Part shown: positions 17,263 to 58,682 of the stretch, in pieces
Layout of the letters: every line of letters begins with the position of its first letter
How positions within the stretch are numbered: the first letter of the stretch is position 1
Notes under the pieces: model-generated
Database searches by the model: none
What the model was told of the DNA's origin: nothing
What the model saw: only the letters and a program-made list of their open reading frames with translations
Translations under genes and position numbers: made by a program
Assembly (NCBI GenBank): GCA_003427395.1
Contig: BFEA01000044.1
Span: forward strand, 2,092,707 to 2,153,846
Direction: 5' to 3'
Source of the DNA: Chara braunii
Lineage: Eukaryota; Plantae; Charophyceae
DNA length: 61,140 nucleotides

Positions 17263-17605
17263 TGTCGCGCGCGGCGGTCCCACACCCAGACGTAAAGTAA
17301 TGTTTTTAGTGTCGGACCTCACGGTCGTGTCACGCAGGAGTTTTCTTTTTGTCACTTTATGCAATACCAACTCCGACCGTGTGATCATGCTATACCTCTT
17401 GCGACTCCCTACGACAGGTTAGGGATCCCGCGAGGTACAACATTACCTCCACCTGCGGGAGTTGTCACCATCCCTTAGGTGGGCGTATCCCTGCTGAGCT
17501 ACTGACCCACGTGCGAAGGTTTTTACATGCAATCGCAGAGGTAGGCCAGCCGAGGGCATTTTCTTGATCACCGTAGCATAGGCATACGCGCGGTAGAACG
17601 CCTTA
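17263..17605 (-). ncRNA. Conserved structured LTR 3'-terminal RNA (copy B)
   Basis: Homologous to 44597-44921, 53242-53589 and 58358-58682, with compensatory stem changes. Confidence 0.7.
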
Positions 17606-18884
17606 AGACTAACCCGTATGTCGAGCCCCGAGGTGCTAACTCTCAGGACCGACTATCTAATCAGGTCGACTTCTCGGACAGTCTTCCACGCTTAACTAAC
17701 TATGACAATGACTTTGTGTTTACTTTGCTCATCATCTGAGAATGTCAGGGTCGATCCCTTTGTAGTCTCCTATTCTCTCAAACAAAACCTAGAAAAATGA
17801 TTTTCCGATCCTGACCAACTACGATCCCATTCATAAGTATATATATATATATAAATGTATATATGTAAATCATGAGAGTTGACTGAGCGGTGGACCTCAC
17901 TTTCACGATTGTCGTGTCCCTTTGCCCGAATTTCTCAGACGATCCCAAACTAAGAAGACAACACAAATGTCCAACACCTGTGCAAATGCAAGAAAACCAC
18001 ATACACGCATACAGATGCAGACACAGAATGCGCTACAAGCGTCAACCTTTAATTCATTCATAGCAAGCCACTCACGCCCCAAGCCCTTAAAAAGAACATT
18101 CCTTCCTAACCCCGACTCCTTTTACCCCCGCCCCACACATATTCAAAGACCTCTGAGTGTGATTTGGACAATTTAGACATAGATACAGGGGTAAGATTTA
18201 TCTGTTCCTTCTTAGGCCTTGCCTTAGGTGAGGGTGTTAAGCCATGGTGGAAGTTGAGTCGGAGTTCTACCGACCAGTTATCCAGAGATAACAGAGTTGT
18301 TGCTCTTGCGGATTCCCCGTTAGTTCTCCGAAGTGTCGAAACCTGTAGACACAACACAGTCCAAGAGAATCATAACATCTCTCTTCCTAACTTAGATCTA
18401 GAAAGTTCCTTCTAGACTCTGTGTCCTTTGTCTGACTTCTATCCTTAACTAATTGTTTGGGTTGTTGCCCTTTCGCTTCAGAAAGTGAATAATAATTCAC
18501 TTCCTCTTTTACTATCGTACTAACTTCCCATATTTTTCCTCACTATCTCATTACTATCCTTTTCTTGATTATCCTGTCTGAGTTCCTTTCCTTCTCCCAA
18601 CAGACATGAACGCATCATCAATCCAACTTGTGGAAAGAATCTCATGGAAAGAAATCAGACAAATGAATAGTCTCTCTCTGAGGTAAGATCTCACTTATCC
18701 CCTCTCAGTAGAATAAGAGATAGTTAGTTAGTACTGAACAATGCAGATTGTGGAGAAAGTTAGAGGTGGCATGGCAGACCATAGAGGATATATCCACTTG
18801 TTACTGGAACTTGTTTGGCAAAGGCAAATCTCGTGGGTCTTGACCCTTGTCAGCCAAAGCACACTTAGCGGTAGGCTTATCCTA

Positions 18885-19560
18885 TGGCTAGTCACTGATA
18901 AGGCAGGTGTCCTTGAAACCTCGCTACTTCTTATATTGGATTAGTCACTGATAAGACAGGATTCCCCTGCTACTCTTATGACTGACTAGCCCTCAATAAG
19001 ACGGGTGTCCAAGGATCCTTACTACTCTTACCACTGAATGAATGTTAGGTTTGATCAATGATAAGGCAGGTGTCCTTGAAACCTCACAACTCTTATGTCA
19101 GACTAGTCGNNNNNNNNNNNNNNNNNNNNNNNNNNNNNNNNNNNNNNNNNNNNNNNNNNNNNNNNNNNNNNNNNNNNNNNNNNNNNNNNNNNNNNNNNNN
19201 NNNNNNNNNNNNNNNNNNNNNNNNNNNNNNNNNNNNNNNNNNNNNNNNNNNNNNAACTCTTATATCAGACTAGTCACTGATAAGACAGGATTCCCTGTTA
19301 CTCTTATCAGTGGCTAGCCCTCAATAAGGCAGGTGTCCAAGGGTCCTTGCTTACTCTTACTACTGAAAAGAATGTTAAGTTGGTTAATGATAAGTCAGGT
19401 GTCCTTGAAACCTCATAACTCCTATATCAGACTAGTCACTGATAAGACAGGATTCCCCTGCTACTCTTATCAGTGGCTATCCCAAAATAAGGCGGGTGTC
19501 CAAGGGTCCCTGCACTTATCACTGACCAAGCGTAAGACTCATTTGGAGTTAAGGCAGGCT
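18885..19560. repeat. B-specific tandem array (~50-bp monomers in a ~165-bp higher-order unit)
   Basis: Recurrent tagtcactgataag(g/a)cagg motif; interrupted by an N gap. Confidence 0.85.
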
Positions 19561-19887
19561 TTCCCTGCTATTCCTACCTCCACACAAGTCTTACCTATGG
19601 CTCAAGTCATCGCTTTTGATGACATTCGAGCCCTGAATCGTTGTTAGTTTGAGAACTTATGTTGGATCAGATGTATGACAAGAAATAATTGACATGGATC
19701 ATCATCGTTGCATCCAATCACAACAGGCTGAACCAAATGAAACCCATTATCTTTAGGCGGCGTATAGAGAGAATGATATGAGTAATCGTTCCCCTTTGCA
19801 TCCACATCCTCAAAGAACACCCACATAGCAAGATCGTTGTACCCTCGTTACTAACATAGTCATAGGTAGCAACCTAAAGGTTACAGA

Positions 19888-55839: not shown

Positions 55840-56245
55840 AAATCCTGAAGTGAGAGTTTTTGGCAGTCTGAAAATCCTGAATGGTTCTGAAGTGGTGAGC
55901 GGTCTGAAGACCCTGAAAACCACTTGTTTAGGCAGGCTGCATCCTGAAGTGTTGAAGGGTGTCCTGAAGTGGTCAAGTGAGAGTTTTGGCCAGTCTGAAA
56001 ATCCTGAATGGTCCTGAAGTGGTGAAAGGTCCGAAGACCATAAAAATCACCCTTCACAACTTGAGGATGCAACCTTCCTAGACAGGTGGTTTTCAGGGTT
56101 TTCGGAGCTTTCACCACTTCAGGATCATTCAGGATTTTCAGACTTGAATGGTCCTGAAGTGGTGAAAGGTCCGATGACCCTGAAAACCACCTGTTTAGGC
56201 AGGCTGCATCTTGAAGTGGTGAAGGGTGTCATGAAGTGGTGATGA
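55840..56245. repeat. Foldback array of ~130-bp units in mixed orientation
   Basis: Forward units at 55840-56055 and 56145-56245; 56060-56143 is the reverse complement of the same unit. Confidence 0.85.
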
Positions 56246-58104
56246 AAAATACGACTATTGTTAACCTTCTCTCTCCGCCACTTGTCTAGCCCATGCCAAG
56301 ACAGAGTCCCAGCCGTGCACTTTTGACTCTCACCTCCTGAATCTTGGTCCAGGTGAGCTTGCTCGCGTTCCACCGTATCAGTGGAGATCTCTGCCTCGTG
56401 GTAAGCGACTGTTACCTAGACCTGAGCAGTGACGTTGTCCCTCACGTAGCGCCTCTTAGCCCGATTCTTTGCCTCAGTGACTACCACCTGCAACTTAGGG
56501 TCCGTCCTCATCTCCTCCTCCCTATCCCCTTCGACATTGATCTTCAACTTGGTCTCTACTCCCCCATCGTAGTTGAGAATGGTAGTGTCCAAGGCCCCTC
56601 CCCAGATATCGACCTCCAGCGCGTTAGGAGGTTCCAACAGTCTGACCTATAGCCATACAAAGTCATGACCGCACACTTTCAGAATAGCCAAAGCTCGACG
56701 TCTGGCGCCCCGCACACAGATAGCTTGCCACCTTCTTACTTCACCGCCCTGCACTCCCTCCTCAATTTACCCGTATTGGCAAGACGAGGTAGCCTGCGTG
56801 AGCCTATTGGCCAGCTACACGTAACGCGACCGTCTCCGTTTTTATAGGATTACTGTGGGTTGCAGTCCTTGCGATGTGGATGAGGGACTTGAACCACCTT
56901 TTTTTTTTTTTAATTCAGCGTATTGGTAGTTTGTAATCCGAAACTTAATAACATAAAATAAGATAAAATAAAACCAAAACCAAATAAGGAGTCGAGGACC
57001 CCGACGGGCATATCGTCCGTAACGCCTTTGACTGTCAATACCAGTCGCCTTGTTTCTAGCGTGAAGCAACCACGAATTCGAGACAGTGGTCCCATAATGG
57101 GATACCGACGACGCTGCTCTCCCTTTAAAAACAGAGCATTAGACTTTCTTTGACGGGGACCCATGTCTGATGGCAGGGGGGGGGGATTATGACCTTCAGC
57201 GGGGGGTGATAACCTCCTTGCTGAAGCGGTCGCGGGTTGCCCCCTTTTGGGGCCATCTGTAATAGAATGAAACCTGAAAAGTCGATCAGTTTGAGTCACT
57301 CGTTTGAAATTCAGGTTCAAAAGCCAATTGTTCGCTCCCTCGCGAAACACCGATGAGAGAGAGACGAAAATTAAAAGGTCAACTAAAAAAAAAAAAAAAA
57401 AAAGTATGATGGTAATGATAATAATAACGTTAATAATAACAATAAGAAGGGGAAAAAAAAGAAAAGAAAAAAAACCTGACAACATTTAGATAACTCAGAG
57501 TAGCGATTCGATTCAAGGTGCGGACCCGCTGCGAAACTTTTCCTCATTTTCCCCTTCTCTTCTCTTTAAATTTTCCCTTTTCTTTTTCGAACTTTTACTC
57601 CTTACTTGATTGCGACCGCCTGACCTATACACACCACCTTTAATCTGTCAAAAGGGGATTAATGCACGGTAGAGGACACTGTGTCAACCTTGCTACCCTC
57701 GCGTCCCCGCGACCATAGACCGACACTGCTCCGCAGTACTGCAGCACGCCAAGCCTGAGTAGGCTGACGAAGAGTCCCCGTGGCACACTATGAAGAAGCG
57801 GACGCGCCTTGTACAATACAGAGGTTTAAAAACATAGTATATCTGATACCCGGGGATAGTTTTTTCCTCCCTCAGTCCTTTCTTTGCCCCGACAACGATT
57901 GCAGCACTCTGCATGCATCCCGTAACCTGTCTAGAAAGGGCCCCAACGCGCACCACTATGGTCTTTTCACAATCCCGTCCCTAAGCATACCCGGTCACAA
58001 CACAACTAAGTACCGAACCTGCTAGATATTTGTAGGCTAAAAGGCTTGGTGCGCTGTGGGAAGTGAGCGGATGCCTGGTACACAGTGGAGGTAGATGAGC
58101 TGAT

Positions 58105-58682
58105 GTCTAGTACGTAGCGGAGGGCCCGGGGACTGTGCCCTCCGACAGCGTCGCCTAACCGATTTTCCATGTCGGAAGGTAAGGGTTGGATACTGAGGGG
58201 ACTAAGAGGGTTTCGTTTATTTTGTTTTGTATTTATTTTTTTATGTTTTTAGTGTGGTGTAACGCGTGGTGAGTGGGATGCGTCCTAGTCGACGGACGAC
58301 GAGTTGCGCTTGGGACTTCAGCCCCCCAATGCGTCAGTTCACGTGCAGTTCCGATAGAGGTGTGGGACTGCGCGTACCCCCTATGCAACAAAGTACGAGA
58401 AACGCCCTCAGCTGATCCACCTCTACGATTGTAACTGATTAGCTATCGTGTTGTGGACTGGTAGCTCGACGGGGATACGCCCACCGAAGGGAGGTGACAA
58501 CTCCCGCAGGTGAGGTAAAGTTGTACCTCGCATAGACCCTATTCTGTCGTAGGGGCTCGCAAGAGGTATGGCTGGCGCACTCGGCCGGAGCGGCTACGAA
58601 AGCTCCACTCGTACCGCGATAAGACCAAATCCAGTGTGACGCGGCCGGGACGGTCCCCCTTGAGAGACCCGTGTGTTCGACA
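58105..58682 (+). mobile_element. 3' end of another related LTR (G); 5' boundary not found
   Basis: Homologous to 52960-53589 and ends gtgttcGACA. Flank is gcgg, with no PBS. Confidence 0.8.

Follow-up and report, generated by a model that had tools for sequence, protein, structure and literature searches.

What a structured block at the 3' ends of long terminal repeats (LTRs) contributes to its elements is the question raised by a 61,140-nucleotide stretch of Chara braunii contig BFEA01000044.1 (the window, meaning the whole stretch analyzed), which is eukaryotic DNA rich in repeats, with microsatellites and assembly gaps. The window contains four copies of the block (B, C, E, and G), exactly four being found by nhmmer and also by self-BLAST. 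Comparison of the copies confirms that a predicted multi-stem RNA-type fold is conserved at the LTR 3' end, in what is likely, judging from its DNA, a high-copy Athila-like Ty3/Gypsy retrotransposon. We lean, with some reserve, toward a role in which this leader, in the unique 5' region (U5) of the LTR, docks its primer tRNA-Asp at two points for initiation of reverse transcription, much as the A-loop of HIV-1 (the type 1 human immunodeficiency virus) does. The copies, with reference to the primer-binding site (PBS), are as follows.

17263..17700, minus strand: copy B, structured block, likely U5, with the LTR terminus at 17263
44585..44921 (approximate), plus strand: copy C, block without a PBS after it
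53140..53589, plus strand: copy E, block preceded by a T/GT-rich tract, without a PBS at the locus
58253..58682, plus strand: copy G, block preceded by a T-rich tract, without a PBS after it

Copy C is presumably a solo LTR or the end of a 3' LTR. A fifth copy, L002, lies in a public metagenome contig (E 2e-71); pattern scanning of metagenome contigs gave three matches, this one true copy and two chance bacterial ones, and scans for further copies gave none in viral contigs and none in genome contigs. Core identity between pairs of the five copies is 67-83%. The high-copy block has a sharp 5' edge, at ~58253 in G and 53140 in E, and the depth of a DNA run at the G edge climbs from 474 to 168,298, a rise from which we derive a unit length of 430-450 nt rather than the ~340 nt of a preliminary description of this DNA. 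The family is very abundant in the genome, a single DNA run placing 23,204 contig records on 701 bases around E.

The LTR terminus of L002 is followed by GG and then by an intact 18-nt site, 2 nt past the terminus, and the same 18-nt site is listed as the Asp-tRNA PBS of the Athila-group element FIDEL (PMC2844528). The first 13 nt of the PBS are described as common to tRNA-Asn and tRNA-Asp in the account of ATHILAfinder (10.64898/2026.03.20.713144). An LTR ending in CA with a tRNA-Asp/Asn PBS within a few bases is thus found intact in L002 and in decayed form in B.

17243..17260, minus strand: decayed Athila-type PBS of B, 2 nt past the LTR end, with four mismatches against L002

The block had been placed directly against a PBS, and within the window this holds for B alone, none having been found after C, E, or G. 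Reads and contigs leaving the E terminus carry PBS-like letters in both DNA and RNA runs (with an agreement of only 0.37-0.47). LTR poly(A) sites usually have a T/GT-rich tract downstream (PMC3601003), and the terminus, the PBS, and the T/GT-rich tracts ahead of E and G together indicate that the block is likely U5 and would lie 5'-terminally in the genomic RNA.

Conservation of the fold is seen most clearly in the alignment of the five sequences, from which a hypervariable loop was excluded. The consensus energy is -84.1, against -61.7+-5.1 in column shuffles, none of 150 of which is as low, and the antisense alignment, at -64.4, is at the null level. Double changes occur at 14 consensus pairs compared with 8.9 in shuffles (5 of 150 reach this number). 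Among 63 pairs set by hand in the well-aligned helices, with the misaligned domain II and terminal hairpin excluded, 92.7% of 313 cells are paired, compared with 32-42% in slid controls; eight of these pairs have two-sided changes (matched by 5 of 500 shuffles), and their covariation score is reached by none of 500. Domain II and the terminal hairpin each add one more two-sided change when aligned by hand. Two G-U pairs are invariant in all five copies and, together with the null-level antisense fold, point to sense-strand RNA. Folds of single copies are weak (z of -2.7, -2.6, -1.1, and -0.8 for the four window copies, weak for E and G). At the 46 listed differences of E and G from the family majority, drawn from the best 40 of 224 rows in each table, 31 positions are unpaired in the model and 15 are paired, and the majority letter improves the pair at 14 of the 15 and weakens it at one.

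The predicted fold has four domains. Domain I is a stem with several branches, closed by GCGTA/TACGC; the hairpin of domain II has an invariant GGTGACA loop and is followed by a GGTAA linker; domain III is a long hairpin with bulges; and domain IV is a three-way junction formed by a closing helix, an 8-bp helix, and a terminal hairpin. The closing helix uses the last bases of the LTR and is broken in B, and the 8-bp helix encloses the hypervariable loop together with a conserved 3' bulge.

All of the stems named in the preliminary description were found in the sequence, above chance and with some corrections of register and mismatch. These include ctggcctac/gtgggtcag in B (17549-17541/17510-17502, minus strand), ctgatccac/gtggactgg in G (58412/58453, with one A-C mismatch), ccacc/ggtgg in B and E with ctacc/ggtag in C (one G is lost in the G copy), and cacggtcg/cgaccgtg in B and C with ctcggccg/cggccggg in G. 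The ggga/tccc and gaggg/ccctc stems are both present, differing by a register shift and not by a column-wise swap; the GTGA loop is there, closed by only one or two pairs; and the terminal ggtcc/ggacc stem is recovered with one mismatch in C and one in G. A proposed acctctgcga/tcgcaagaggt switch fares less well, being paired in 88% (44 of 50 cells) without covariation (350 of 500 shuffles reach it), and a local helix built from the same bases has two-sided changes. Seen by eye only are an alternative in which the first GAGGTA pairs with ACCTC and a pseudoknot that GGCGT/ACGCC might form.

The block had also been said to belong to no known RNA family, and an Rfam scan of it agrees, with nothing at gathering score. 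Matches to DUF3800-IV in L002 (19 bits, E 6.3, threshold 60.7) and to STnc410 beside G (E 0.79) were dismissed as chance. ARAGORN finds no tRNA in the window, and a tRNA-derived origin of the block was rejected, there being no D-stem and no ARAGORN or Rfam call; a GTAGCTC run in the block resembles an A box.

The feature that suggests a function is a complementarity to the primer, absent from the earlier account. The PBS had named tRNA-Asp beforehand, and a conserved stretch of 10-11 nt, 55-76 nt before the LTR end and in the bulge region of domain IV, is complementary to tRNA-Asp positions 33-43, facing the anticodon loop and the 3' side of its stem. It reads CCTGCGTGACA in B and C and CCTGCGTGAC in L002, is the reverse complement of tRNA-Asp(GUC) 33-43 with one G-U, and is 11 nt long in B and C and 10 nt in L002. 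The GGTGACA loop of domain II offers a second, shorter complement to the anticodon.

17328..17338, minus strand: complement in B, 11 nt (10 Watson-Crick pairs and one G-U)
44859..44869, plus strand: complement in C, 11 nt
53525..53535, plus strand: complement in E, decayed at 53528 and 53529, where the family majority has the matching letters
58631..58641, plus strand: complement in G, decayed at 58633 and 58635, where the family majority has the matching letters
17463..17469, minus strand: invariant GGTGACA loop of domain II in B, the shorter anticodon complement and a possible GNRA loop

At the decayed sites the matching letters make up 98% and 96% of the family depth in E and 99.8% and 96% in G. 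Shuffles reach the observed length in 2 of 300 for B, 1 of 300 for C, and 9 of 300 for L002. Against the whole of tRNA-Asp the match in B is 13 nt, and 11 nt is reached in 10 of 400 shuffles. Other tiles of the window reach 11 nt once and 10 nt eight times in 244, and the arms of seven other tRNAs match over at most 9 nt, at scattered places. We estimate the chance of the tRNA-Asp complement at roughly 0.3-3%, counted as one test. GUGAC accounts for two of the six invariant runs of at least 5 nt, the second lying in a hairpin loop. The anticodon stem-loop of tRNA-Asp(GUC) is printed as CCCGCCUGUCACGCGGG (PMC3380923) and is contained in the tRNA-Asp of PMC5699543, and it also occurs in phage tRNA-Asp genes (9 of 10 called Asp), the selection pattern for which fixed the arm. 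With this stand-in tRNA-Asp, the U5 block carries a conserved complement to the anticodon arm of its cognate primer.

In the two-point docking that we somewhat favor, the element RNA would fold into its four predicted domains just upstream of the tRNA-Asp PBS, with the three-way junction of domain IV keeping the bulge stretch near that site. The 3' 18 nt of the tRNA would anneal to the PBS, a Gag chaperone would open the anticodon arm, and positions 33-43 would pair with the U5 stretch, an interaction that would choose the primer and hold the complex, or shield it, until synthesis starts. Only copies that transpose would be under selection, with inserted ones left to decay, and the upstream domains I-III would probably add packaging or dimerization signals. 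Should the pairing be real, the choice of tRNA-Asp by these elements could be tested precisely and cheaply, LTRs that have no coding sequence could be classified by a structural marker, and tRNA modification might prove to be linked to transposon control; should it not be, there is still a conserved leader fold, so far undescribed, that merits an Rfam entry.

A structured U5 or leader is a known kind of feature in LTR elements. In HIV-1, the A-loop pairs with the anticodon of tRNA-Lys3, a contact that helps in choosing the primer and shields the RNA ahead of synthesis, although the literature is divided (PMC7793103, PMC11181671). The block resembles the HIV-1 PBS segment in its folded U5, its predicted three-way junction beside the PBS, and its predicted unpaired stretch complementary to the anticodon, but it has no sequence relation to it, offers 10-11 nt of mixed sequence to tRNA-Asp at 55-76 nt from the LTR end, and has a second GUGAC loop. 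Extended, bipartite primer sites are reported for Ty1 and Ty3, with a pseudoknot in Ty1 (PMC4974528), and Drosophila Gypsy binds its primer at two sites (PMC1635307). These too are LTR retrotransposon RNAs that fold compactly at the 5' end and contact the primer at extra points; in Ty1, however, the additional sites are 3' of the PBS, their partners being the T and D arms of tRNA-iMet (PMC4974528), and the second sites of Ty3 and Gypsy are at the 3' end of the genome, whereas the block has its site in U5, opposite the anticodon arm.

The Athila/Calypso clade, as represented by FIDEL (PMC2844528), shares the identical 18-nt PBS, long LTRs, and a short gap between LTR and PBS. The block ends in CGACA with a GG gap, in contrast to the TATCA terminus and AT-rich gap of Athila (10.64898/2026.03.20.713144), and the comparison is one of DNA, with no protein for placement. 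The main text of the ATHILAfinder article does not mention 'secondary structure' (10.64898/2026.03.20.713144), and no such fold or anticodon contact is described for Athila-type LTRs in the literature covered, a scope outside which fall the FIDEL and ATHILAfinder supplements and most subscription papers. Retrozymes, Cassandra, Helenus, and Ajax likewise have LTRs with a conserved structured RNA (PMC4918200, PMC10886601), but theirs is a hammerhead or a copy of 5S rRNA or tRNA in short elements, none of which was detected in the block. Plausibly, the block acts as a retroelement device of a known sort, in a form not yet described.

Several points weigh against the docking. There are only five related sequences, too few for proof of R-scape grade, the shuffles do not preserve the relationships among them, and the structure itself comes from the same five sequences. 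Because all copies belong to one lineage, the anticodon match counts as a single test, and a post hoc one, and the decayed E and G do not rise above shuffles (277 of 300 and 111 of 300). The arm comes from stand-ins (phage tRNA-Asp genes and two papers on other eukaryotes) and not from the host, whose type of tRNA-Asp was not found, the searches giving zero, four chance non-tRNA, and zero matches. The 3' site is not dependably open when sequences are folded singly (unpaired probability 0.18-0.97), and some of it can form pairs inside the RNA. Gag and Pol families gave no matches in 244 scanned frames (241 of the 437 listed plus three others, with most of 6300-14200 and 19900-28000 excluded), so that lineage placement rests on the PBS.

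The RNA reads also count on that side. Each RNA run was sampled at 6-13%, and the E and G mappings have reads in common. The libraries are stranded, as judged by a small-subunit (SSU) rRNA fragment at ~59036-59140 (14,320 versus 45 in X19), and in X19, the one deep stranded run, block reads are ~2.5:1 antisense to the fold; in X18 and X20, depth over the block is <8 on either strand. For so abundant a family, this low or antisense signal looks like read-through or intronic background. The pattern is compatible with the block having a function in rare active copies, and RNA of this kind can escape oligo-dT libraries. Read ends showed no pile-up over the block, an uninformative result given fragmented oligo-dT libraries.

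How else might the conservation be explained? Domains I-III, most of the 430 nt, lack a tRNA complement, one of the two GUGACs sits in a GNRA-like loop, which stays open in each of the five folds (0.75-0.98), the structured 5' end of Ty1 serves packaging (PMC4974528), and 10-nt matches do turn up in 8 of 244 tiles. All of this would suit a leader for packaging, dimerization, or Gag binding, in which GUGAC makes protein or tertiary contacts and the tRNA match is chance. We regard this as a serious contender but an unlikely one, because the match is to the very tRNA named by the PBS, extends over 11-13 nt near that PBS, and is kept beside a hypervariable loop. A more elaborate form of primer contact would make the 430 nt a tRNA-reading device, whose two anticodon sites capture tRNA-Asp and flip the RNA from a translating to a priming fold. 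Positions 34 and 38 of tRNA-Asp, which carry queuosine and Dnmt2 methylation, respectively, are both covered by the helix, and host tRNA modification would thus gate transposition of a repeat that is among the most abundant in the genome. We consider this device doubtful; C38 does occur in construct names of PMC5699543.

Control of translation or splicing, by an internal ribosome entry site (IRES) or a switch that masks a splice donor, might be read from the four to seven ATGs per copy, from the donor-like GGTAA between domains II and III (in four of five copies by the pattern used), and from the T-rich tract ending in AG ahead of E and G. It is improbable in view of the lack of a spliced RNA joint among the 15 joints listed for each of E and G (a further 28 and 17, respectively, fell outside these listings) and of a known downstream open reading frame; L002 has ~900 nt without a gag-like frame after the PBS (not scanned against Pfam), and the block has no Rfam IRES match. 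Words common to domains I and III (ACCTC and TCGCA) suggest an old duplication, E and G have weak z-scores as single copies, and LTR ends are conserved for integrase regardless (PMC3601003), as might be expected if the hairpins act as single-stranded DNA (strong-stop, strand transfer, or integrase end) or are side effects of duplication within a GC-rich repeat. Set against the invariant G-U pairs, a sense fold better than the antisense by 20 kcal/mol, and an integrase need of only the last 8-15 bp (PMC3601003), this is quite improbable. Initiation of reverse transcription was among the functions proposed earlier and is the one that the evidence favors; a ribozyme was another, and although plant retrozyme LTRs of ~350 bp contain hammerheads (PMC4918200) and the block has several invariant unpaired runs, a new self-cleaving ribozyme is highly improbable. 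The hammerhead core is absent from both strands of the block, no ribozyme family matches even at E up to 5-10, and a cut between R (the repeated region of the LTR) and PBS would presumably remove the template of strong-stop DNA.

The internal region of B is flanked by an 8-kb repeat (92-94% identity) whose last 2-3 kb differ.

6209-14215, minus strand: first member of the 8-kb repeat pair, beginning near TGTC and a shared 20-nt motif
19939-27893, minus strand: second member, with the same kind of start

If these starts are LTR starts, then the LTR of B would be ~10.6 kb long and its partner would have a different 3' part. The 20-nt motif recurs at 28471 and 29606. A matching target-site duplication was not found for C, E, or G. 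In copy C (44507-44921, plus strand), the terminus recurs at 44507 as a perfect 7-bp inverted repeat, and there is a TATA-like run at ~44551, as if the copy were a short LTR of 415 bp; it has no target-site duplication.

The main block had been described as the most conserved long block of these LTRs, but an upstream block of 432 nt common to two of them is more alike (87.5%). This second block has a terminus-like word at its end, and there is an additional block of high depth at 53014-53095.

4420-4847, minus strand: second hairpin-rich conserved block, 87.5% identical to the next
52591-53020, plus strand: the same block, which precedes the main block in E-type LTRs

Four LTR-like units share a conserved hairpin with a purine run, which may be the start of R or a polypurine tract and is likely a recombination point. 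It stands at the junction of differing upstream and downstream modules, and a donor-like AGGTA comes after it in three of the four units.

6198-6293, minus strand: hairpin and purine run
19918-20023, minus strand: hairpin and purine run
41441-41549, plus strand: hairpin and purine run
49931-50039, plus strand: hairpin and purine run

The window also includes a type III hammerhead match with a CTGATGA...GAAA core within an inverted-repeat element at ~24-477, short SSU rRNA fragments, a weak tRNA-like sequence, and another repeated element.

212-267, plus strand: hammerhead type III match, 41.4 bits, E 1.3e-5, below the threshold of 48.5
12619-12752, minus strand: SSU rRNA fragment
14348-14431, minus strand: weak tRNA-like sequence (25 bits, E 0.72), just upstream of the 8-kb repeat
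26302-26418, minus strand: SSU rRNA fragment
59036-59140, plus strand: SSU rRNA fragment
58683-59020, plus strand: another repeated element, with DNA depth in the thousands, beginning directly after the G terminus

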